This document shows positions 4,080 through 15,825 of a stretch of 15,825 bases of DNA, in pieces (position 1 is the first letter of the stretch; each line of letters begins with the position of its first letter). The notes under the pieces were generated by a model, which did no database searches, was not told the DNA's origin, and saw only the letters and a list, made by a program, of their open reading frames with translations. This DNA is from a virus (Duplodnaviria > Heunggongvirae > Uroviricota > Caudoviricetes). A program made the position numbers and the translations under genes. Location: IMG/VR virus record IMGVR_UViG_2565956713_000002; one strand, written 5' to 3'.

Positions 4080-4379
4080 ATGAGAACATATTTATCTGGC
4101 TTGACTGCCAGCGGTTATGCACACCCCAAAATTATCCCCGGCGCTATTTATCTGGATAAGAACGGTAACAGAGTAACGGTAAAAGAACTGATGTTTGACC
4201 GTGTTTATTTTATTCGTGATGGCTATTCATTTCATAGTTCGCTGAACGTGGAGATCTTTATTTGCAGATTCCGGCGGGAAATCCCGCTTTCCAGAAATAA
4301 CCATGTGTCATGTATGGATGTTGATAAAAAACTACAGGAACTGAAAAACATGATTGCCGCGTGGAGAGAGCAGAAATGA
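4080..4379 (+). CDS. Hypothetical protein (99 aa)
   Basis: ORF in operon context immediately upstream of the replication gene. No recognisable motif. Confidence 0.5.
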   Translation: MRTYLSGLTASGYAHPKIIPGAIYLDKNGNRVTVKELMFDRVYFIRDGYSFHSSLNVEIFICRFRREIPLSRNNHVSCMDVDKKLQELKNMIAAWREQK

Positions 4380-6499
4380 AAAAAGCGCCAAATTTAAAAC
4401 ACCAGCCGCGTGACAAAATGACGGAAGTCATCATTTTTGCGGGTAGTGATGCGTGGGCACATGCGAAGCAGTGGCAGGAACAGGACGGGCGACTGGCTGG
4501 CGATAACGTGCCTCCTGTGTGGCTTGGTGAGCAGCAGTTATCCGAACTGGATAAGCTGCAAATCGTACCGGACGGACGCTATCGCGTGCGTCTCTATCAG
4601 GCGGGGTTATTGCGTCCGGGGCTTGTTAATACCATCGGGCAGAAACTGGCAGCGGCAGGTGTCAGGGATGCTGATTATTATCCTGAAGGAATGCACAGCC
4701 AGAAACGGGAGAACTGGCGCGAATATCTGGAACGTGAACGGGCAGAGCAGGCGGAAAAGAAAAAGGTAGTTGAACTGCCTGTAAAGAAAAAAGAGCCATG
4801 CTATCAGGATGATGAATTAAAGCCCAGCGTTGAAAGTCGCGTCGATGGTGTTTTCTGGGTAACGCCCAAAGTGGATAAGCAGTCAGGCGAAATTATCCGG
4901 CCTGAGACGTGGTTATGTTCTCCGCTTGAACTACTGGGAACGGGGACGATCGGTAAAGAGCATTACCGCGTGATGCGCTGGAAAAAATTAGCAAACCATG
5001 AAGTCATCACAATGGCGATCCCGTGTGGTGGCATTGGCGACCGTGACGGCTGGCGGTTGCTTAAAGATCACGGGCTGAATGTGACAACAAACGGCAAATA
5101 CAGGGCTATCCTGGCTGACTGGATGCAGTTAAGCGGAAGCCATGAGGAATGGCAGTTAAGCACAACAACGGGCTGGCATTTTGGCGCGTACATCATGCCG
5201 GACGGTTCAATCATTGGTGATTCTGAAAAACCGATCCTGTTTACCGGAAAAAGTGCCGCTGTTAATGGCTATTCGGTTGCGGGTACGGCGGAGGGCTGGC
5301 GCGACAGCGTGGCGCGGCTGGCTGGTGGCAATCCGTCCATGATGCTGGGTGTTGCCACGTCACTGGCAGCACCTTTGATTGGCCTTGTTGGTGCTGACGG
5401 CTTCGGGGTACATCTTTTCGAACAGTCATCAGCAGGGAAAACCACCACGCAGAACATCGCATCAAGTTTATGGGGAGAGCCGGACGCACAACGGCTTACC
5501 TGGTACGGAACGGCGTTAGGTATCGCCAACGAGGCAGAGGCGCACAACGACGGGCTGTTACCCCTGGATGAAATAGGCCAGGCCGGAAACGCGCGGGAGG
5601 TGTCCACGTCAGCCTATACGTTGTTTAACGGCTCCGGGAAATTACAGGGGGCGAAGGACGGCGGCAACCGGGAGATAAAACACTGGCGCACGGTGGCAAT
5701 CAGCACCGGAGAAATGGACGTTGAGACATTCCTCAAAACGGAGGGGATAAAAGTCAAAGCGGGGCAGCTTGTCCGCCTGCTTAACGTTCCGATGGAGAAA
5801 GCCACGCAATTTCACGAATACAGCACCGGAAAGGCGCACGCAGACGCGTTAAAGGATGCCTGGACTGCAAATCACGGGGCGGCGGGTCGTGAGTGGGTTA
5901 AATGGCTGGCAGACCACCAGCAGGAGGCAAAGGACACGGTAAGGGAATGCCGCGAACGGTGGCACAACCTGATACCGGAGAGCTACGGCGAGCAGGTCCA
6001 CCGCGTGGGGGAGCGTTTCGCCATACTGGAGGCCGCACTAGTGCTTTCCGGTCATATTACTGGCTGGGATGTTCAGGCGTGCCGTGATGCCATTCAGCAT
6101 AACTTTAATGCCTGGGTGAAGGAGTTCGGCACGGGTAACAGGGAATTTAAACAGATGGTTGAACAGGCTGAGGCGTTTTTGTCGTCGTTCGGGTTCAGTC
6201 GATACCTTCCTTACCCAAACAGTGATGAGCGTGATTTACCAATTAAAGATCTTGCCGGATACAGAAAGGGGAGTATCAGAAATGAAGATGATGAGTTCCG
6301 CTTTTACACGTTTCCTCATGTGTTTGAGGGTGAGATAGCACAGGGATTTAATCCGTCTCACTTTGCCCGCGCGTTGAGTGCTGCCGGAATGCTGGAAGCG
6401 GGTAACGATCGCCGTTACAAGAAAAAGGCGCTCGGCAAAATTGGGGGGAAGCAGCATGTTTTTTACGTGCTGATGTTCCAGCCTGAAGCAGAAGATTAA
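4376..6499 (+). CDS. Replication initiator, primase/helicase-like protein (TOPRIM-like N-terminus, DUF927-type ATPase with Walker A)
   Basis: Walker A-like SSAGKTT. N-terminal EVIIFAGSDAWAH resembles a TOPRIM start. Size (~707 aa) and position upstream of the iteron origin fit a satellite pri-rep gene. Start chosen at the ATG at 4376, preceded by GAGAGAG; 4361 and 4418 are alternatives. Confidence 0.75.
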   Translation: MKKAPNLKHQPRDKMTEVIIFAGSDAWAHAKQWQEQDGRLAGDNVPPVWLGEQQLSELDKLQIVPDGRYRVRLYQAGLLRPGLVNTIGQKLAAAGVRDADYYPEGMHSQKRENWREYLERERAEQAEKKKVVELPVKKKEPCYQDDELKPSVESRVDGVFWVTPKVDKQSGEIIRPETWLCSPLELLGTGTIGKEHYRVMRWKKLANHEVITMAIPCGGIGDRDGWRLLKDHGLNVTTNGKYRAILADWMQLSGSHEEWQLSTTTGWHFGAYIMPDGSIIGDSEKPILFTGKSAAVNGYSVAGTAEGWRDSVARLAGGNPSMMLGVATSLAAPLIGLVGADGFGVHLFEQSSAGKTTTQNIASSLWGEPDAQRLTWYGTALGIANEAEAHNDGLLPLDEIGQAGNAREVSTSAYTLFNGSGKLQGAKDGGNREIKHWRTVAISTGEMDVETFLKTEGIKVKAGQLVRLLNVPMEKATQFHEYSTGKAHADALKDAWTANHGAAGREWVKWLADHQQEAKDTVRECRERWHNLIPESYGEQVHRVGERFAILEAALVLSGHITGWDVQACRDAIQHNFNAWVKEFGTGNREFKQMVEQAEAFLSSFGFSRYLPYPNSDERDLPIKDLAGYRKGSIRNEDDEFRFYTFPHVFEGEIAQGFNPSHFARALSAAGMLEAGNDRRYKKKALGKIGGKQHVFYVLMFQPEAED

Positions 6500-6522: not shown

Positions 6523-6647
6523 TGCGGGTTATGCGGGTTATCCTGTGTGTAAGTGCATTAACTGTATGAATAAAAAGGAAATCAATAACCCGCACGTAAC
6601 CCGCAAAACGGCAGTTATAACCCGCAAAAGTGCGATTATAACCCGCA
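6523..6647. repeat. Iteron-type replication origin: 2 direct TGCGGGTTA copies, an AT-rich spacer, then 4 inverted TAACCCGCA copies
   Basis: Direct copies at 6523 and 6532; inverted copies at 6586, 6597, 6618 and 6639 (spacings 11, 21, 21 bp). AT-rich 45-bp spacer between the two groups. Lies immediately downstream of the rep gene. Confidence 0.65.
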
Positions 6648-6710: not shown

Positions 6711-7136
6711 ATGACAGCACAGATAGCTGCTTACGGGCGGTTGGTGGCTGACCCGCAGTTAAAGACCACCAGCAAAGGGACACAAATGGCGATGGCGAGT
6801 ATGGCGATTCCTCTTCCGTGCAGCCAGGCAGATGACGGAACAGCGACGATGTGGTTATCAATTCTGGCGTTTGGCAGACAGGCCGATGCACTGGCAAAAC
6901 ACCACAAAGGCGAGCTGGTGAGCGTGGCGGGTAACATGCAGGTAAGCCAGTGGACAGGCCAGAACGGGGAAACGCGGCAGGGCTGGCAGGTTATCGCAGA
7001 CAGCGTAATCAGTGCGCGAACGGCGCGACCTGGTGGCAAAAAAGGCCAGCAGGGGCAGGCCACTGACGCACTGAACAGGGCAAAACAACAGACAGGCCAG
7101 CACGATGACCCGTACGGGGATGAAATACCGTTTTAG
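6711..7136 (+). CDS. ssb: Single-stranded DNA-binding protein
   Basis: OB-fold-like N-terminal region, Gly/Gln-rich linker and the acidic C-terminal tail DDPYGDEIPF, matching the SSB D-D-D-I-P-F tail. Confidence 0.75.
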   Translation: MTAQIAAYGRLVADPQLKTTSKGTQMAMASMAIPLPCSQADDGTATMWLSILAFGRQADALAKHHKGELVSVAGNMQVSQWTGQNGETRQGWQVIADSVISARTARPGGKKGQQGQATDALNRAKQQTGQHDDPYGDEIPF

Positions 7137-7154
7137 CGATAACAGGGGGGATAC

Positions 7155-7403
7155 ATGCCAGTGACATTTGAAGAAGTCCAGCAACATAAAAAGTTTCATG
7201 GTTTTGATGATCTGGAAACCACGACAGCAAAAAAATATCGCCGTCTGCTTTCTTCCGATGCGTTGTTTTTTGTAGATCATCATGATTTTCTGCGTAGCTC
7301 ACTGACAGGGGAAATTTTCGCAACCAACCGTGAGCAGGTGGAAGCGATGATCGAATATCTGTGGAAAATAAGACGCAGAATGCGGGATTCCATGAAACAG
7401 TAA
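7155..7403 (+). CDS. Hypothetical protein (82 aa)
   Basis: ORF with a G-rich RBS, followed by a clear intrinsic terminator. Confidence 0.45.
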   Translation: MPVTFEEVQQHKKFHGFDDLETTTAKKYRRLLSSDALFFVDHHDFLRSSLTGEIFATNREQVEAMIEYLWKIRRRMRDSMKQ

Positions 7404-7412
7404 AGCGATAAA

Positions 7413-7676: not shown

Positions 7677-8846
7677 ATGAAGAAATTAATCGAACTCCGC
7701 CAGCAAAAAACCGCCCTGAAAAACCAGATGCGATCCCTGCTGGAAAAAGCCGACAGTGAAAACCGCAGTCTGAACGCTGAAGAAGGCAAACAGTTTGATG
7801 AACTGCGTGCAAAAGCTGATGCCCTCGACACAGAAATTTCCCGCCTCGAGTCTGTGGCTGATGAAGAACGCAGCAAGCCAGGAACGGGCATCCAGAAATT
7901 ATCATCTGATGAATTGCGTAACTACATCGTAACCGGAGATGTGCGATCACTGTCCACCAGCACTGACAGCGGCAGGGATGGCGGATATACCGTAATTCCT
8001 GAGCTCGATCGCGAAGTCATGCGCCAGCTACAGGATGACAGTGTTATGCGCGTGATCGCGACCGTGAAGACCGCAAAATCAAATGAGTTTCAGAAACTGG
8101 TTTCCACTGGCGGCGCAACTGTAGGACGAGGCACAGAAGGCAGCGCACGCAGTGAAACCAACACACCGAAAATTGAACGCGTAACCATCAAGCTGAATCC
8201 GATCTACGCCTACCCTAAAACCACGCAGGAAATCCTTGATTTTTCAGAGGTGGATATTCTGGGTTGGTTATCCTCCGAAATTGCCGACACGTTCGCCAGC
8301 ACCGAAGAGGATGATTTTGTTAATGGCGACGGTAACGGCAAGCCGAAAGGCTTCATGGCTTACACCCGTGCGGCGACCAGTGACAAAACCCGCGCTTTTG
8401 GCACCATTGAAAAAATGGTAGCGGCAAGTGGAACCGCCATTACAGCGGACGAACTGATCGACATTCTCTACAAGCTGAAAGCGAAATACCGCAAAAATGC
8501 CGTCTGGGTGATGAACTCGGGCACGGCAGGGGCACTACAGAAGCTGAAAAATGAGAACGGCGATTATATCTGGCGCGACAGCCTTAAAGAAGGTGCGCCG
8601 GATATGTTGCTTGGTCGTCCTGTTTACTGCCTGGAGTCCATGCCGGACATCGGCGCAGGAAAAGCACCGCTAGCGGTTGGCGATTTCAGTCGTGGTTATT
8701 TCATCGTTGATCATGTAACAGGGATTCGCACCCGACCGGACAACATTACTGAACCCGGATTCTACAAGGTCCACACGGATAAATATCTGGGCGGTGGTGT
8801 GGTGGATTCAAACGCCATCAAAATTCTGGAAATGAAAGCTGGCTAG
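7677..8846 (+). CDS. Major capsid protein, HK97 family, with N-terminal delta (scaffolding) domain
   Basis: Coiled-coil-like N-terminus (LIELRQQKTALKNQMRSLLEKADSENRSLNAEEGKQFDELRAKADALDTEISRLE) followed by an HK97-fold-like body; context with protease and portal. Confidence 0.85.
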   Translation: MKKLIELRQQKTALKNQMRSLLEKADSENRSLNAEEGKQFDELRAKADALDTEISRLESVADEERSKPGTGIQKLSSDELRNYIVTGDVRSLSTSTDSGRDGGYTVIPELDREVMRQLQDDSVMRVIATVKTAKSNEFQKLVSTGGATVGRGTEGSARSETNTPKIERVTIKLNPIYAYPKTTQEILDFSEVDILGWLSSEIADTFASTEEDDFVNGDGNGKPKGFMAYTRAATSDKTRAFGTIEKMVAASGTAITADELIDILYKLKAKYRKNAVWVMNSGTAGALQKLKNENGDYIWRDSLKEGAPDMLLGRPVYCLESMPDIGAGKAPLAVGDFSRGYFIVDHVTGIRTRPDNITEPGFYKVHTDKYLGGGVVDSNAIKILEMKAG

Positions 8847-8856
8847 TCATGAGTAA

Positions 8857-8881
8857 GGAGGAGGCTGCGGCCTCCTTTTTC
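8857..8881 (+). terminator. Hairpin plus T5 run after the capsid gene (AGGAGGC-TGCG-GCCTCCT-TTTTT), likely a partial terminator
   Basis: 7-bp stem with tetraloop and five T residues, located between the capsid and protease genes. Confidence 0.45.
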
Positions 8882-8900
8882 AGCTTTATGGAGTACACCG

Positions 8901-9461
8901 ATGAAAAACACCGATTTTGAAATCCGCACATCTGAACTGACCGCCAGCAATAAAAAGCTGGTGGGGTATGCCGTTCGCTGGAACAGCCTTTCAGAAATTA
9001 TCTGGGACGAATTCCGCGAACAGTTCACGCCGGGGGCTTTTGCTGACTATCTGGCGACGGGTAATGATGTGCGCTGCCTGTATGAGCATGACTATACCCA
9101 ACTGCTGGGGCGCACCAAATCCGGCACTCTGGTACTGACTGAGGATAACACCGGGTTACGTTTTGAACTGACACCGCCGGATACCCAGCTTGGAAAAGAT
9201 GTGCTTACGCTGGTGGAGCGTGGCGACATTACAGGAATGAGCTTTGGTTTTCGCGCATTATGCGAGGAGTGGAGTATCGCGCAAAAACCGTATTTGCGTA
9301 CCGTAACCGCCGCTGAACTCCGTGAAATCACAATAACGTCGATGCCTGCTTATCCAGAATCTGGCGTGGAGATTGCCCACCGTTCGTTGTTTGCACAGCA
9401 CCCTGAATTATGCCCGACAGGAAATAATCGTCATCGCTGGTCTGAGCTGGCGGGGTTGTGA
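8901..9461 (+). CDS. Prohead maturation protease, HK97 family
   Basis: 186-aa protein with GYAVRWNSLS...FTPGAF...GDITGMSFGF, resembling the HK97 prohead protease family; GGAG RBS upstream. Confidence 0.8.
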   Translation: MKNTDFEIRTSELTASNKKLVGYAVRWNSLSEIIWDEFREQFTPGAFADYLATGNDVRCLYEHDYTQLLGRTKSGTLVLTEDNTGLRFELTPPDTQLGKDVLTLVERGDITGMSFGFRALCEEWSIAQKPYLRTVTAAELREITITSMPAYPESGVEIAHRSLFAQHPELCPTGNNRHRWSELAGL

Positions 9462-9462
9462 T

Positions 9463-10677
9463 ATGTGGTGGCCTTTTAGTCGTAAAAAAAGCGAGCAGCG
9501 TAACCTGTCCATTGATGATTTTCTGGCGCTGTCCGGCGTACCGAATACCGGATCCGGAGAATATGTTTCTGCCGGGACGGCTGAATCATTGCCTGCAGTG
9601 ATGAACGCGGTTTCTGTCATCGCTGAGGCGGTGGCCACGATGCCGTGTTATCTGTATCTGGTACGTAATGACAAGGGCAGGGAGGCGCGGGAATGGCTGG
9701 ACAGTCACCCGGTAGATATTCTGCTGAATGAGCAGCCTAATTCGTGCCAGACACCTTACCAGTTTAAACGCACAATGATGCGTCACTGCCTGCTGAACGG
9801 TAACGCCTATGCGGTTATTGAGTGGGGGCAAGACGGGCAGCCAAAATCACTTCATCCTTATGCGCCGGGGTGTGTTGTACCGGAACGCACAGGCGCACAC
9901 AAATACCGCTATACCATCACCGAACCCTATACAGGAACGGTGCGCACGTATTTACAGGAAGAAGTTCTGCATCTCCGCTATGCCTCGGATGATGGCTTTC
10001 TGGGGCGTTCCCCTGTCACGATTTGCCGTGAGGCGCTTGGGCTTGGCCTTGCTCAACAGCGCCACGGAGCCAGCATTATGAAAGATGGCATGATGGCGGC
10101 AGGGATTATCACGTCAGGCGAATGGCTGGACGGCGTGAAAGGTAAACAGGCATTAGATGCTCTGGAACGCTACAAGGGGGCGAAAAATGCCGGAAAAACG
10201 CCAATCCTTGAAGGGGGCATGGATTACAAGCAACTGGGAATGAGTAACCAGGATGCGGAATGGCTGGCCTCCCGTCGCTTCTCCATTGAAGACATCGCCC
10301 GCATGTTCAACGTATCGCCTATTTTTCTGCAGGAATACAGCAACAGCACCTACAGCAATTTCAGCGAGGCAAGCCGCGCGTTTCTGACCATGACAATGCG
10401 CCCATGGCTGGCGAACTTCGAACAGCAAATCAAGGCCGCTTTGCTGGTGGCTTCTCCCGTACCTGGTACCCGTTATCTGGTTGAGTTTGATTCAGCCGAT
10501 TTATTACGCGCCACACCCACCGAACGTTATGCCACGTATGAGAAAGGGATTAAGAACGGGATCATGAATCCGAACGAAGCCCGTGAGCGTGAGGGTATGC
10601 CGCCGCGTGAAGGTGGTGATGAGTTCAGCCAGGCATGGAAACAGACTGTGGAAATTAAAGGGAGAAAAGATGAGTGA
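9463..10677 (+). CDS. Portal protein, HK97 family
   Basis: FSIEDIARMFNVSPIFLQEYSNSTYSNFSEASRAFLTMTMRPWLANFEQQ matches the conserved portal core. The ATG at 9463 directly abuts the protease stop; the ORF-track start at 9373 was trimmed. Confidence 0.85.
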   Translation: MWWPFSRKKSEQRNLSIDDFLALSGVPNTGSGEYVSAGTAESLPAVMNAVSVIAEAVATMPCYLYLVRNDKGREAREWLDSHPVDILLNEQPNSCQTPYQFKRTMMRHCLLNGNAYAVIEWGQDGQPKSLHPYAPGCVVPERTGAHKYRYTITEPYTGTVRTYLQEEVLHLRYASDDGFLGRSPVTICREALGLGLAQQRHGASIMKDGMMAAGIITSGEWLDGVKGKQALDALERYKGAKNAGKTPILEGGMDYKQLGMSNQDAEWLASRRFSIEDIARMFNVSPIFLQEYSNSTYSNFSEASRAFLTMTMRPWLANFEQQIKAALLVASPVPGTRYLVEFDSADLLRATPTERYATYEKGIKNGIMNPNEAREREGMPPREGGDEFSQAWKQTVEIKGRKDE

Positions 10678-10972
10678 AGCCAGAATTACACCTGATGAAG
10701 TCAGGGCACATCTTCGACTTGATGATGATTTATCCGGTGAAGGCGAACTTCTGAAAATGTATACCGATGCGGCGCTGGAAGCCTGCCAGAAGCATATCGG
10801 GAAACGTTTTGAAGACGGGCTGGAATTTACCCCGGCAATGCGTGTTGGTTGCCTGATGTACATCGCTTTCCTGTACGAGAACCGGGAAGCGGTTTCACCA
10901 GTGGAGCACTCGGAACTGCCTATGGCTATTTCTGCGCTCTGGTCAGTTTATCGTGACGTAGGGGTGTACTGA
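10670..10972 (+). CDS. Head-tail connector protein (gp6-like)
   Basis: ARITPDEVRAHLRLDDDLSGEGELLKMYTDAALEACQKHIGKRF resembles the gp6-like connector family; start overlaps the portal stop. Confidence 0.6.
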   Translation: MSEARITPDEVRAHLRLDDDLSGEGELLKMYTDAALEACQKHIGKRFEDGLEFTPAMRVGCLMYIAFLYENREAVSPVEHSELPMAISALWSVYRDVGVY

Positions 10973-11412
10973 TGCCGTGGCAACCATTAAGGCGATGCAC
11001 TGAGCCTGGCTGTAATAAGCGCGTGAAGTCCGGCAAGTGTGAAGAGCACAGGCGGGCTGCATGGCGTGCAGAGGATGCCAGACGGGGACACCGCCGCGCG
11101 CGCGGGTATTCCCGACAGTGGGACAAATACCGCGCCCTGTACCTGAGCAAAAACCCGTTATGCGTGCGTTGTCTGGCTAAGGGGATTTATACGCCAGCTC
11201 TTGTGGTGGATCACATCATTCCCATCAATGGCGGCGGTGATGTTCTCTTCTGGCCTGAGTGGAATCACCAGGCATTGTGCCAGACGTGCCACAACCGTAA
11301 GACGACACGGGAAGATCCAGCCACGAAAGCAAACCGTAAAGCGGGCATGTATCGCGAGCAGGAAGAACGGGCGGCACACCGTAACGACTGGATGTATGGC
11401 GATGATGACTGA
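10972..11412 (+). CDS. HNH endonuclease (packaging-associated)
   Basis: Cys-rich motifs CTEPGCNKRVKSGKCEEH and VDHIIPINGGGDVLFWPEWNHQALCQTCHNRK (HNH with zinc-binding cysteines); position beside the terminase genes. Confidence 0.8.
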   Translation: MPWQPLRRCTEPGCNKRVKSGKCEEHRRAAWRAEDARRGHRRARGYSRQWDKYRALYLSKNPLCVRCLAKGIYTPALVVDHIIPINGGGDVLFWPEWNHQALCQTCHNRKTTREDPATKANRKAGMYREQEERAAHRNDWMYGDDD

Positions 11413-11581
11413 ACAGGAGCAAACCAGGCTGATACGTGGACTGATAAGGCAGCGTGACACATGGAAGACACAGGAGACAGAGCACAAAGCCAACAGGACA
11501 GGGCGCACAAAACGCACCACAGCGAAGCGATTAACCGACCGTGACCGCGAGGTCATGGAATGTTTTCGCAATCGCTGGTGA

Positions 11582-11700
11582 GGCCGTCAGAGGGGGTGGG
11601 GGTGGTTTTCAGGACGAAACCGTCCCTGCCGGACACCGACCGCCCCCTCAAATTTTTGTGCACGGTAATTTTTTTGAAAATAATTGGGCGAAAAAAGAAC
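11582..11700. other. Candidate cos/packaging-site region: G-run inverted repeat (GAGGGGGTGG ... CCGCCCCCTC) and an internal hairpin, between HNH and terS
   Basis: Inverted G/C-rich arms read directly, with an internal AGGACG-AAAC-CGTCC hairpin. In HK97-like cos phages that pair an HNH gene with terminase, cos lies just upstream of terS. Confidence 0.3.
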
Positions 11701-12057
11701 ATGGCAAGACCACCAAAAGCCCCCGCTTACCTGGATGAAATCGCGGTCAGGCAGTGGAAGGAAAAATCGCGCCAGCTTTCCGGGCGGGAAGACCTTACCC
11801 CCGCCGACTGGAGCAATCTGGAACTGTATTGTGTTAACTACTCCATATACCGCAAAGCCGTCGAAGACCTTGCGACGCGCGGGTTCAGCATTGTTAACAG
11901 TCAGGGTAGCGAGAGCAGAAACCCCGCACTGAGCGCAAAGGCTGACGCAGAAAGAATAATGATCAAAATGGCTTCTTTGCTGGGTTTTGACCCGGTAAGC
12001 CGTCGCAGAAATCCACCGGAAACAGAGGAAGAGGACGAACTTGACCGCCTGGCATGA
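11701..12057 (+). CDS. Terminase small subunit (P27-like family)
   Basis: 118-aa protein MARPPKAPAYLDEIAVRQWKE...DLTPADWSNLELYCVNYSIYRKAVEDL; position immediately upstream of terL. The ORF-track start at 11560 was trimmed to the internal ATG. Confidence 0.7.
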   Translation: MARPPKAPAYLDEIAVRQWKEKSRQLSGREDLTPADWSNLELYCVNYSIYRKAVEDLATRGFSIVNSQGSESRNPALSAKADAERIMIKMASLLGFDPVSRRRNPPETEEEDELDRLA

Positions 12058-13702
12058 GTACGCAGAAGGCGTAAAAAACGGCAAAATTACGGCCTGTAAA
12101 CGACTGAAACAGGCCGTTAAACGGTATTTTTCTGACCTTGAAAACTCCCTTTACACGTTCGATCCGGAGGTCGTGGAGCGGTTTATTGCCTTTTCCCGGG
12201 TGTGTCCGCACGTAAAAGGCGCAATGCGCGGTAGTCCCATTGAACTGGAGCCGTGGCAGCAGTTCGCCTTTGCCTGCATCCTGGGCTTTAAGGTTAAGGC
12301 CACCGGACGGCGCAAATACACCAGCGCATTCATTGAAGTACCGCGAAAAAATGCCAAATCCACGGTCGCCGCTATCCTGGCTAACTGGTTTCTGGTTATG
12401 GAAAACGGGCAGCAGGATATTTACACCGCCGCCGTGAGTCGTGATCAGGCGCGGATCGTGTTTGATGATGCGCGTCAGATGTGCCTTTTATCCCGACCGT
12501 TACGAAAGCGGGTAAATATTCAGGCACACAAGGTGATACACCCGAAAACCAACAGCCTGTTAAAGCCACTGGCAGCAAAAGCGGCAACCATTGAAGGTAC
12601 AAATCCGAGTCTTGCCATTGTGGATGAATATCACCTGCACCCTGACAACGGGGTTTATTCCGCACTTGAGCTGGGGATGGGGGCGCGTCCGGAGGGGCTG
12701 TTATTTGCCATCACCACATCGGGGAGCAACGTTGTTTCAGCCTGTAAACAACACTATGACTATTGCTGTCAGATACTGGATGGTGAAGAGGTGAACGAAT
12801 CCATGTTCGTTCTGATTTATGAGCTGGATGATGAAAGCGAGGTTGACGATCCGGCGATGTGGATAAAGGCGAATCCCAATATCGATGTTTCCGTAGATCG
12901 TGAAAAACTGGCCTCAACCATCCAGAAAGCGCGGGGTATTCCGTCGCAGTGGGTGGAAATGCTCACCAAGCGATTCAATATCTGGTGTCAGGGGGCTACG
13001 CCGTGGATGGGTAACGGTGCATGGGCTGAGTGCGCCGGAACGTTCACGGAGGAAGATTTACACGGTCAGGAGTGTTACGCGGGGCTTGATTTATCATCCA
13101 CAAGCGACATCTCCAGCGTGTGCTATGCCTTTCCGGTTGGTAAAACCATTATGCTGGTTTCTCGTCACTATCTGCCGGAATTTCAGCTACAGAACCCCGC
13201 CAATAAAAACCGCGCCATCTATCGCCAGTGGGCAAAGGCGGGCTGGATACGCACAACACCGGGTGACTGCATTGATTATGACCGTATCCGTGATGACATC
13301 ATGGCGGATGCAGAGAATTTCAATATCAGGCTGGTGGGCTTTGATACGTGGAACGCCACGCACCTGAGAACGCAGTTACAGGGGGCAGGCTTTGAGGTGG
13401 AGCCGTTCCCGCAAACCTACCTTCGTTTCAGTCCGGCGGCGAAATCGTTCGAGGTTTTTGTTAACCGGAAGGTGATTGTGCATCGTGGTGATCCGGTGCT
13501 GGCCTGGTCAATGAGTAATGTTGTGATGCAGAGTGACGCGAACGCCAATATCAAGCCGAACAAGAAAAAATCATCCAACAAGATAGACCCGAGCGTTGCG
13601 GCGCTGATGGCGTTTGGCACATTCCAGGCTGAGCATGAGGAATTTGCATTTGATATGAGCGACAGCCAGAAAGAGCGACTAGCGGCATTTGATGGGGTAT
13701 GA
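12041..13702 (+). CDS. Terminase large subunit (ATPase plus nuclease)
   Basis: 553-codon ORF with Walker A-like VPRKNAKST, Walker B-like LAIVDEYHL and C-terminal nuclease-like acidic motifs (GLDLSSTSD, VGFDTWN). The ORF begins with TTG at 12041, overlapping terS by 17 nt; the start is uncertain. Confidence 0.85.
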   Translation: MTAWHEYAEGVKNGKITACKRLKQAVKRYFSDLENSLYTFDPEVVERFIAFSRVCPHVKGAMRGSPIELEPWQQFAFACILGFKVKATGRRKYTSAFIEVPRKNAKSTVAAILANWFLVMENGQQDIYTAAVSRDQARIVFDDARQMCLLSRPLRKRVNIQAHKVIHPKTNSLLKPLAAKAATIEGTNPSLAIVDEYHLHPDNGVYSALELGMGARPEGLLFAITTSGSNVVSACKQHYDYCCQILDGEEVNESMFVLIYELDDESEVDDPAMWIKANPNIDVSVDREKLASTIQKARGIPSQWVEMLTKRFNIWCQGATPWMGNGAWAECAGTFTEEDLHGQECYAGLDLSSTSDISSVCYAFPVGKTIMLVSRHYLPEFQLQNPANKNRAIYRQWAKAGWIRTTPGDCIDYDRIRDDIMADAENFNIRLVGFDTWNATHLRTQLQGAGFEVEPFPQTYLRFSPAAKSFEVFVNRKVIVHRGDPVLAWSMSNVVMQSDANANIKPNKKKSSNKIDPSVAALMAFGTFQAEHEEFAFDMSDSQKERLAAFDGV

Positions 13703-13992
13703 CGAGAATGACTGAAACCGATCTACTAAAAATAATTCGCTGCGTTACCGGAGTCTGCCAGGCAACAGGCAAACCGGAGGCCAAGCAGCCGGATACCGTC
13801 ACCGCTGAAAATTACGCGCGTGTGGTGGCTAAGGTGATGCGCCGTGACGGTATTGAGCTTAACGGCGTGGATATGCGCAACATACGAACCAGAGTCCTTG
13901 AGTTGCTGGCATACCGTCGCCGTTCTCAACAACGGAGGGAGAGCGCGAAAAATACTTACCAGTGGAAGAAGCCGGAACGGTTGCGGCGGTAG
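13699..13992 (+). CDS. Hypothetical protein (97 aa), last gene of the element
   Basis: ORF whose start overlaps the terL stop (ATGA). Basic C-terminus; no recognisable motif. Confidence 0.45.
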   Translation: MTRMTETDLLKIIRCVTGVCQATGKPEAKQPDTVTAENYARVVAKVMRRDGIELNGVDMRNIRTRVLELLAYRRRSQQRRESAKNTYQWKKPERLRR

Positions 13993-14331
13993 ATTCCTGA
14001 TATTCAGGAAAACCACGAATCTGTGGGTTTTACTGGCGCGGTTACGGCGGTGACACGCACCGAGGCAGAACAATTACCGTAGGTTAAAGCGACAGTATTC
14101 ACACCAAAGGCAGAAATTAGCGGTTAACGTAACTGACTGATATTTTCAGGAACAGCCAACGGCTGAGGCCGGAGCTATAAGAATAGCTTTGGGTACAGTC
14201 CTCAGTTTTGAGGGATGTTAACCAACTGAATAATAAGCAAACCTCAAAATTGAGTTTTGTATCTGCCTGAGTTATTTCTGTGCTAACTTGTTGATATTCC
14301 CGACGGCCCAAAAATGGGTTGGCTGGTTGGT

Positions 14332-14449
14332 GAGTTGCAGATTTGCAACTCGACCATGAAACTACGGAAACTACCCGTAGTTTGGGTAGTAAGAGCAACA
14401 CCCAGATTTTGGGGCTTACTCGCGATCCCCAAATAAAGGGGATCGGTGG
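14332..14449. repeat. 118-bp direct repeat, copy 1 (starts with near-palindrome GAGTTGCAGATTTGCAACTC)
   Basis: Direct comparison with 14766..14883 shows 6 mismatches in 118 bp. Contains AAACTAC x2 followed by GTAGTTT and GGTAGT, and a GATCCCC-AAATAAA-GGGGATC hairpin. Confidence 0.85.
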
Positions 14450-14478
14450 CATCACTGGCCCCACTTTCCTGATGTGTT

Positions 14479-14632
14479 TGCGGGTTATTTGGGAGAGGTT
14501 GCGGGTTATTTTGAATGACTTGCGGGTTACGATTTGGCTAACATTTGAACATGTCATTTTTCAACGCATTGATATTAAATAATAAAAAATACTTAGCACG
14601 CGAAGATAACCCGCTAACCCGCATAACCCGCA
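14479..14632. repeat. Second iteron cluster: 3 direct TGCGGGTTA copies at exact 21-bp spacing, a ~75-bp AT-rich spacer, then 3 inverted TAACCCGC copies
   Basis: Direct copies at 14479, 14500 and 14521; inverted copies at 14607, 14615 and 14624. Same 9-mer as the origin at 6523..6647. Confidence 0.65.
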
Positions 14633-14765
14633 CTGTTTTGTATATATATACGAAAAATTGCATTCAGGAGGGGTAGCAAAATCCCTACCGTCTCTTATCT
14701 CTTGGAGTGCCCGCCTCTTCGAATTTTAACCCCCGTGAAATTACAAAATTTCCCTGACTGATGGC

Positions 14766-14883
14766 GAGTTGCAGATCTGCAACTCGACTATGAAACTACG
14801 GAAACTACCCGTAGTTTGGGTAGTAAGAGTAACACCCAGATTTTGGGGCTTACTTGCGATACCCAAATACAGGGGATCGGTGG
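14766..14883. repeat. 118-bp direct repeat, copy 2 (starts with perfect 20-bp palindrome GAGTTGCAGATCTGCAACTC)
   Basis: About 95% identical to copy 1, 434 bp downstream. The 20-mer at 14766..14785 is its own reverse complement. Confidence 0.85.
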
Positions 14884-15288
14884 AAGAAATATCGTTTCTC
14901 ATATGTGAGTACCGAGGGCGGAATTCCGCCTTCGGTTACTTATTGTGCTCATGCACAGGGAGGGGCGGGTCAAATCTCTGTACCCTGACGTCTTCCGGAC
15001 TGCCCGCTCCATCGATTTTTTATACCCGCGAAAAATGCTTCACGCTGGTGGGCATGATGCGTGGGGATGCTGATAATGGGTTATTGTGGGATAGATGTCT
15101 CATACAATAAGAGATTCATAATTTGCTTTTTAATACTGTTATACTCGCCGCCTTTCTACCGTGCTCATGCTTTCGCATATTTTCGGCTTTGTGCAATAAT
15201 CCGTATATCACTCGGTGTATCACTTTTAGCTAAAATGCATGGCGTGTTTGTTAATTTAACTGATTAAAATCAGTGGGATATAAAGTTT

Positions 15289-15825
15289 ATGAAACATATT
15301 GTAGAAGTAATGATCCCCGAAGCGGAGATTAAAGCGCGTATCGCCGAACTGGGTCGTCAGATTACTGAGCGTTACAAAGACAGCGGCAGCGATATGGTGC
15401 TGGTGGGTCTGCTGCGTGGCTCATTTATGTTTATGGCGGACCTGTGCCGTGAAGTTCAGGTATCTCATGAAGTCGACTTTATGACCGCCTCCAGCTACGG
15501 TAGCGGCATGTCCACCACCCGTGATGTGAAAATCCTCAAAGATCTGGATGAAGATATCCGTGGCAAGGACGTGCTGATTGTTGAAGATATCATCGACTCG
15601 GGGAATACACTGTCGAAAGTGCGTGAGATCTTAAGCCTGCGCGAACCGAAGTCGTTGGCGATTTGTACGCTGCTGGATAAACCGTCCCGTCGTGAAGTGA
15701 ACGTCCCGGTAGAATTTATCGGTTTCTCGATCCCGGATGAGTTTGTGGTGGGTTACGGCATTGATTACGCACAGCGTTACCGTCATCTGCCGTATATCGG
15801 CAAAGTGATTCTGCTGGACGAGTAA
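15289..15825 (+). CDS. hpt: Hypoxanthine phosphoribosyltransferase (core chromosomal gene)
   Basis: Complete 178-aa ORF with the PRPP-binding motif [14 protein letters not shown]; essentially the enterobacterial Hpt sequence as recalled. Different sequence character from the island. Confidence 0.95.

Follow-up and report, generated by a model that had tools for sequence, protein, structure and literature searches.

The 15,825-nucleotide stretch of viral DNA analyzed here (IMG/VR record IMGVR_UViG_2565956713_000002, referred to in full as the window) is an Escherichia coli capsid-forming phage-inducible chromosomal island (cf-PICI) in the 5′ end of hpt, and it carries a cluster of short repeats (iterons) at positions 14479 to 14632, about 8 kb from a cluster of the same repeat beside the replication initiator gene rep. 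Comparison with related islands indicates that this distal cluster is probably module B, the second, mirror-image half of a two-part origin that is used by the DUF927-type Rep protein and would be functional at a distance from the rep-adjacent half, module A. An earlier note, made from the letters of the window, had proposed a second site for the same Rep, acting in cis alongside the rep-adjacent origin. This part of the proposal held up, being favored by the matching of iteron words in five classes, by covariation with the C terminus of Rep, and by conservation of the split copies, as described below. The view of the cluster as an extra element had to be replaced, as it corresponds to half of an origin whose two halves adjoin in most relatives, the prototype EcCIEDL933 among them.

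An exact word search of the 15.8-kb window returned 11 copies of the 9-mer TGCGGGTTA, every one within the two clusters. With up to one mismatch allowed, there were 16 matches, compared with 3.96 ± 1.89 in shuffled sequences, and none of 200 shuffles reached 16; the distal cluster is real and very unlikely to have arisen by chance. Module A (6523 to 6647) begins 24 bp past the rep stop codon and consists of two packed forward iterons (6523 to 6540, with exact copies at 6523 and 6532), a 45-bp spacer with 69% A+T (6541 to 6585), and four exact reverse copies at 6586, 6597, 6618, and 6639. The distal cluster lies 7956 bp away (start to start) and comprises a phased arm on the forward strand (14479 to 14529), in which three exact copies at 14479, 14500, and 14521 are spaced by exactly 21 bp; a 77-bp spacer with 70% A+T (14530 to 14606), which is the putative melting site; and a packed arm on the reverse strand (14607 to 14632), in which three iterons follow at 8- to 9-bp spacing, namely, the one-mismatch copy TAACCCGCT at 14607, which overlaps the next copy by 1 base, and exact copies at 14615 and 14624. 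For comparison, the whole window has 50% A+T. The arrangement given in the earlier note, three direct copies of the 9-mer at 21 bp, an AT-rich spacer, and three inverted copies, was thereby confirmed, with the spacer set at 77 bp and one inverted copy mismatched. When reverse-complemented, the distal cluster reproduces the proximal layout of packed copies, A+T-rich spacer, and copies at 21 bp, and the two clusters are mirror images of each other. The conserved minimum of origins in PICIs and Staphylococcus aureus pathogenicity islands (SaPIs) is at least two iterons per side in opposite directions (PMC9371898), and module B has three forward and three reverse copies on the two sides of its A+T-rich region. 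In position it departs from such origins, starting 7980 bp past the rep stop codon, whereas module A lies immediately 3′ of rep.

Twenty Enterobacterales loci encoding relatives of Rep, drawn from one-genome-per-species contigs, were searched for a repeated word just past the rep-like gene. Results revealed that, in Rep relatives from ∼15 genera, the origin after rep is usually made of two adjacent mirror-image modules, A and B, which are contiguous in about 11 of the 20 loci and together form a large imperfect palindrome (packed, phased/phased, packed). In these relatives, module A opens with a packed group of two or three forward iterons; past an A+T-rich spacer come its reverse iterons, three or four in number, at spacings of 11, 21, and 21 bp. 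Module B often has one reverse copy, followed by two or three forward iterons 21 to 22 bp apart, which 55 to 77 bp of A+T-rich spacer separate from a packed group of two or three reverse iterons. The 21- to 22-bp phasing of module B is kept in all iteron classes, and in relatives with a contiguous origin the module lies no more than about 300 bp from rep. The layout of the distal cluster in the window is exactly that of module B. Moreover, cf-PICIs of Winslowiella (locus L008), Rahnella (L012), and Pantoea (L013 and L022) with the same capsid/terminase module carry A and B contiguously, and so do the prototype EcCIEDL933 and E. coli EC21Z-151, in which both modules are made of the same TGCGGGTTA word. 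Since both the cf-PICI relatives and the prototype have contiguous modules, the window carries a split version of a normally contiguous origin. As a separate observation, the Yersinia pekkanenii locus (L015) has three full A+B origins within 6 kb (7142 to 7411, 11724 to 11993, and 12905 to 13204), two of which flank or adjoin Rep-like sequence, and this triple origin may represent a tandem or rearranged satellite array.

Split arrangements, with the modules 2 to 11 kb apart, were found in three E. coli island types, in Escherichia albertii, and in Serratia, and the orientation of B relative to A was identical in every split case. In the E. coli cf-PICIs, including the window, the SSB gene and the capsid/packaging genes lie between the modules, which are separated by 7.7 to 9.2 kb; in the E. 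coli island at tRNA-Gly (L006), SSB, ProQ, PerC, and three very large open reading frames (ORFs) take up 10.8 kb; and in the E. coli island at rcnR/thiM (L072), an ORF, SSB, ProQ, and PerC take up 6.2 kb. Separations in Serratia range from 2.1 to 6.2 kb overall, for instance, 4.7 kb with Dit-like, baseplate-hub, and gpV-apex genes (L017) and 2.1 kb with a MazF-like toxin (L024). In split-type islands, SSB directly follows module A. The cargo of L017 (12114 to 15237, Serratia sp. strain Ag1), which encodes Dit-like, Pam3-gp18 plug, baseplate-hub, and gpV-apex proteins, is of interest in its own right, as tail-tip and baseplate genes are unusual for a satellite, cf-PICIs being described as taking the tails of their helper. 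In addition, two loci (L029, 6398 to 6450, and L072, 9531 to 9575) retain a remnant of the outer end of module B, with one degenerate iteron and a TATA...AAAAATTGAG flank, directly after module A, and also have a complete copy of the module at the right end. The remnant looks like a footprint left by the rearrangement in which the origin was split.

Scanning viral contigs for the pattern yielded 43 loci of the TGCGGGTTA class, comprising 12 with contiguous modules, 8 that are visibly split (7.7 to 10.7 kb), 19 with module A only, and 4 with a B module and no rep within the fetched stretch. Five of the 19 A-only loci were checked for gene content, and all five end short of the right end of the island. 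The L029 type had been considered as a possible intact island without module B and was rejected, as complete genomes carry a full distal copy. One locus (L048) extends 10.4 kb downstream of module A without a module B.

Conservation was tested on eight split loci ascertained via module A only, with module B located by its non-iteron flank. Within the cluster, 2 of 53 iteron columns were variable, compared with 43 of 101 non-iteron columns (Fisher p = 7e-8); an earlier version of the test had relied on a regular expression demanding exact iterons, and A-only ascertainment gave the same result. The iterons of module B are near-invariant while the linkers have diverged, at an overall identity of 82 to 93%, showing, on sequence comparison, that these iterons are under purifying selection. 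Because 1- and 2-base indels occur among the split copies, the region is non-coding. Conservation in the split copies extends to the right half of the spacer and to the outer flank, which suggests that further functional sequence may lie there. This flank (14633 to 14673, CTGTTTTGTATATATATACGAAAAATTGCATTCAGGAGGGG) is near-invariant among split copies, its first ∼28 nucleotides are also common to contiguous origins, and E. albertii has the same flank despite different iterons. Beyond the two modules, a one-mismatch iteron (TGCGGGTCA, 6749 to 6757) lies within the SSB gene, ∼110 bp past module A, and is kept in most split-type islands; its conservation may merely reflect coding constraint on SSB.

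The initiator gene rep (4361 to 6499, forward strand) is a 712-codon ORF from a GTG start at 4361, with a probable ATG start at 4376 that would give a protein of 707 amino acids. Rep matches Pfam DUF927 (E = 8e-48), RefSeq labels a homologue as a DUF927 domain protein, and its relatives in the PDB are 8tch (“Pathogenicity island protein,” E = 7e-15) and the helicase 5dgk. Rep is a DUF927 protein of the SaPIbov1-Rep/Cch type, DUF927 being the mark of the Cch/SaPIbov1-Rep lineage (PMC7581432). The DUF927 match and the relationship to 8tch and 5dgk support a role for Rep as a self-loading helicase, while the indication of a C-terminal DNA-binding domain is suggestive only: the last 119 residues weakly match the helix-turn-helix domain of Cch (PF18662, HTH_56; E = 6e-4, below the curated cut-off). 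In SaPI Rep helicases, iterons are read by a C-terminal winged helix (PMC9371898), and the C-terminal ∼110 residues of Rep in the window (6161 to 6499, forward strand) are the predicted iteron-specificity domain.

Variation among relatives bears on this prediction. The E. albertii Rep (L007) is 93 to 100% identical to that of the window over residues ∼151 to 570 and 30 to 50% identical over residues 601 to 712. In this island, module B is split from module A by 2.2 kb and has the same outer flank as the window (TTTTGTATATATATACGAAAAATTGCATTCAGGAGGGG), with iterons (CTTGTCCCA) equal to those of its own module A. The C-terminal domain, the word of A, and the word of B therefore change together, as E. 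albertii differs from the window in all three. Besides the E. coli word TGCGGGTTA and the E. albertii word CTTGTCCCA, the iteron words were GTGGGTTA in Winslowiella and Tenebrionibacter, CGTGGTTCA in Cedecea, GTTGGTTCA in many genera, and GGGATAAGT in Serratia oryzae and Pantoea rodasii. Among the 17 loci with both modules, which represent five iteron classes, the commonest 8-mer of module A occurred two to six times in module B of the same class and was absent from module B of other classes, save for one cell, where the S. oryzae module has a single copy of the E. albertii word. Taken together, the word matching in five classes and the covariation with the Rep C terminus argue that the iterons of module B match the specificity of the cognate Rep. 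As a specificity control, a PICI with a P4-like primase uses TGTTCACC iterons, all within 220 bp past the gene, and no TGCGGGTTA cluster was found at its homologous right-end site. A side observation concerns the initiator of E. coli TUM18780 (L005, 2945 to 4762), which is a mosaic: its first 123 residues are 98% identical to Rep of the window (compare 4361 to 4730), and past residue 123 it is a P4-like D5_N/Pox_D5 helicase, with P4's own iteron word TGTTCACC. This mosaic implies domain-level recombination between replication modules.

These features suggest how module B may work. Rep of this type binds opposed iteron sets, melts the A+T-rich spacer without ATP, and loads itself (PMC9371898). 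On module B, Rep hexamers would bind the iterons through the C-terminal helix-turn-helix domain, with three sites on one face of the helix in the phased arm (21 bp being two helical turns) and three packed sites in the packed arm; binding would melt the 77-bp A+T-rich spacer, and Rep would load itself as the replicative helicase. Module B might then fire as a second initiation site, or it might cooperate with module A by Rep-Rep bridging, with the intervening 8 kb looped out. Both possibilities, second initiation site and bridged partner, are raised because A and B each have the arrangement of published origins. When a second initiation site, a crr-like helper (crr being the cis replication region of phage P4), and a binding sink are compared, the sink seems to fit the anatomy of module B least well.

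Several points weigh against a displaced but functional origin half. Binding, melting, and initiation at module B are predicted from sequence comparison. In the prototype that has been studied experimentally, A and B are contiguous, so that action at a distance is putative for this family, and since each module alone has the features of published origins, B could be redundant. Strain STEC308 carries a degenerate island with a truncated rep and an intact module B; as B is kept there despite the rep pseudogene, its presence alone is no proof of current use. In the selection test, alignment columns and related sequences are counted as if they were independent, and the survey for intact islands without module B, as far as these sequences go, was not exhaustive. 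Finally, module B lies inside a ∼434-bp tandem duplication in a mosaic region and therefore in a recent rearrangement.

Other roles for module B were weighed against the same evidence. Iteron plasmids such as P1 (incA) and F (incC) have extra initiator-binding iterons outside the minimal origin on the same replicon, and by this established precedent module B, also an initiator-site cluster outside the rep-adjacent origin, might be a negative-control array that titrates Rep or handcuffs module A and so limits or times replication. Conserved, Rep-matched iterons would be needed by a sink as well. We consider this unlikely, however, because a plain direct-repeat array, as in incA and incC, which act negatively and have no unwinding spacer, would be enough for a sink, whereas module B has full origin anatomy with opposed sets and a 70% A+T spacer; it is joined to A as a symmetrical partner in most relatives; and a brake is less obviously useful to a satellite that needs burst replication after induction. 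It is improbable to a greater degree that the module is a non-functional relic of inter-island recombination or duplication with decay pending. The position of B between two copies of a 122-nucleotide repeat, in a duplicated mosaic right end, and the case of STEC308 would suit a relic, but the iterons are near-invariant while the linkers have diverged, the split state occurs in at least two clades with varied cargo and varied iteron words, and the B iterons of E. albertii match its own Rep.

A mainly regulatory role, in which Rep would act on module B as a promoter or operator that serves orf83-SSB in contiguous islands and a non-coding RNA or hpt in the window, is very hard to credit. A TGTTTTGTATATATATA tract is conserved after the packed iterons in all contexts, and a gene starts ∼30 nucleotides past B in contiguous islands, both as a promoter would have it. 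Yet a consensus scan of module B, where a promoter had been looked for, found no sigma-70-like promoter; a −10 element at the TATATA tract of EcCIEDL933 would place the transcription start within the ribosome-binding site; Gram-negative PICIs are described as one rightward transcription unit (PMC6092414); and the mirror symmetry with A would be left unexplained. Coding sequence across module B was likewise rejected, as the two ORFs concerned (14117 to 14557, reverse, and 14343 to 14582, forward) have no Pfam match, no gene is annotated at this place in the close relative B1172, and relatives carry indels. Thus, on the comparative evidence, the case for module B as a displaced origin half appears strong. 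A more speculative and rather doubtful extension of this reading is that the half-origins bracket the cargo and late genes, that Rep bridges them or fires at both so that the segment is looped or preferentially amplified, and that the A/B junction serves as a docking site for cargo swaps. If so, origin architecture would drive the modular evolution of satellites, with capsid genes, large cargo genes of unknown function, baseplate genes, and toxins being exchanged at a recombination-prone junction.

Among known systems, PICI and SaPI origins (Ubeda 2007/2012, Fillol-Salom 2018, Qiao 2022) share with the window the opposed short iterons flanking an A+T-rich region and the reading of an iteron origin by a self-loading Rep helicase through its C-terminal domain, the helicase being of the DUF927 type here. 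The difference is that published origins are single units right after rep, whereas the window has two mirror-image units with the second 8 kb off. In open-access papers and preprints on PICIs, cf-PICIs, SaPI Rep, and the staphylococcal cassette chromosome mec (SCCmec), we found neither a mirrored second module nor a split arrangement described.

The closest organizational analogue is phage P4, to which the earlier note had likened the two clusters. According to its GenBank annotation, the 11.6-kb P4 genome has crr at 4291 to 4590, directly downstream of the alpha gene and made of two 120-bp repeats with five iterons each, and ori iterons at 9310 to 9413, 4.8 kb from crr. The parallel is sound insofar as both small satellite genomes have two clusters of one initiator-binding repeat kilobases apart, and bridging or looping between A and B through Rep would resemble the reported ori-crr interaction. 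It does not extend to the components. No relationship between Rep and P4 alpha was detectable (BLASTP E = 0.11; different Pfam domains), alpha being a primase-helicase with zinc ribbon, Toprim, D5_N, and Pox_D5 domains, and P4 crr is built of two 120-bp direct repeats with type I iterons (TGTTCACC), while module B has only one unit and another word. The likeness is therefore one of organization and not of family membership. Moreover, the assignment of the rep-adjacent cluster as ori and the distal one as crr is reversed by position in the P4 annotation, where crr lies next to the initiator gene and ori far from it; this is a warning against assuming that module A is “the” origin. Because the PICI L005 has P4-type iterons in one block, each initiator type occurs in a contiguous and in a split form.

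Two-part chromosomal origins and the control iterons of plasmids are more distant analogues than P4. In the Helicobacter pylori origin, two clusters of initiator sites (oriC1 and oriC2) are split by coding DNA and thought to cooperate by initiator bridging (PMC3479198). The oriC of Bacillus subtilis, around dnaA, is likewise a two-part origin divided by a gene. These bacterial origins differ from the window in having DnaA boxes, in a separation of about 1 to 1.5 kb that is the initiator gene itself, and in having the unwinding element in one subregion only, whereas both modules of the window have an A+T-rich spacer.

PICI and SaPI origins have been described as a single iteron unit beside rep. 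The present comparison suggests instead that Enterobacterales satellites with a DUF927 Rep have a mirror-symmetric two-module origin, the modules of which have repeatedly been pulled 2 to 11 kb apart in nature, and this amounts to a natural experiment on the use of multiple or distant sites by self-loading initiator-helicases. If both halves are needed, the arrangement would be a second, evolutionarily independent case of the P4 ori/crr principle and a tractable system for studying communication between distant sites by such helicases; if each half fires alone, these would be small satellites with two origins. In either case, the origin boundaries used for synthetic PICIs and cf-PICI delivery vehicles may need revision. 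In addition, the matching of the Rep C-terminal domain with the iteron word may offer a simple predictor of replicon compatibility, and in split islands the second iteron cluster is a marker for where the cargo ends.

The gene set of the window is that of cf-PICIs (bioRxiv 10.1101/2022.09.08.507074). Pfam searches identified a tyrosine integrase; DUF6387, ORF6N, and DUF4222 proteins; the DUF927 protein (4361 to 6499); SSB (6711 to 7136, forward), which is the first gene of the segment between the modules; and, as further cargo of this segment (7677 to 13992, forward), an HK97-type major capsid protein, prohead protease, portal, connector, HNH, TerS, and TerL, along with orf97, with hpt at the right edge. 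A near-identical element lies between gcd and hpt in E. coli B1172. The attachment (att) core, TATGAAACATATTGTAGAAG, is at 15287 to 15307 (forward) in the 5′ end of hpt and forms the right boundary of the satellite; alignment of attR, the empty K-12 site, and attL of B1172 gave a 20-bp core, TATGAAACATAYTGTAGAAG. The distal cluster is thus inside the satellite, ∼650 bp from its right end. In the excised circle of ∼15.5 kb, modules A and B would lie nearly opposite each other, 7956 bp apart one way and ∼7500 bp the other.

Module B sits in a 1.3-kb right-end stretch that has no annotated gene in the close relative B1172, contains no ORF backed by a Pfam match, and matched no Rfam family at the gathering or E ≤ 1 threshold. 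It is flanked by two direct copies of a 122-nucleotide repeat, at 14328 to 14449 on its left and 14762 to 14883 on its right (both forward; 94% identical), which carry no iterons. The repeat has no Rfam match and folds as three or four hairpins (minimum free energy, −53 kcal/mol; z = −5.9 for the left copy), and it could act as a structured RNA or, as DNA, bind a protein. Since a scan for tRNAs found none, the flanking repeats are not tRNA-derived att sites. The idea of a tandem remnant island, with the 122-nucleotide repeat as an att duplication and the cluster left from a decayed second island, was discarded as well, both because the att core is at 15287 to 15307 and because the repeat is a common internal element at the right end of E. 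coli PICIs. Of 5,426 E. coli genomes, 878 have matches to parts of the 1.3-kb region, in many cases as a collapsed single-copy unit that includes the repeat; the TUM18780 PICI (L005) has such a unit at its right end.

Two diverged G+C-rich copies of ∼90 to 100 nucleotides (14661 to 14761 and 14950 to 15060; CAGG(G)AGGGG...CCCGC..., with a T-run at the end) join the 122-nucleotide repeats in the ∼434-bp tandem duplication, which is arranged as [122][X][90]. The place of X is taken by module B in the first unit and by a terminator-like hairpin (14911 to 14936) in the second, and the duplicated form is present in only four to six complete genomes. A cos site was considered and rejected for the right-end region, as no lambda-type cosN was found, the G+C-rich copies likewise not being of this type. 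At the very end of the satellite, integration into the first ∼20 nucleotides of hpt replaces the native hpt promoter region, and promoter-like sites at 15049 to 15077 and 15172 to 15200 may now drive this gene. The motif GTATATCACTCGGTGTATCACT occurs near attR (15203 to 15224) and, in B1172, just upstream of int near attL (L001, 2733 to 2754), and the TUM18780 island has an analogous motif, GGTGTAGTTAATGGTGTAGTTAAT; the GTATATCACTCGGTGTATCACT motifs are probably arm-binding sites of the integrase.
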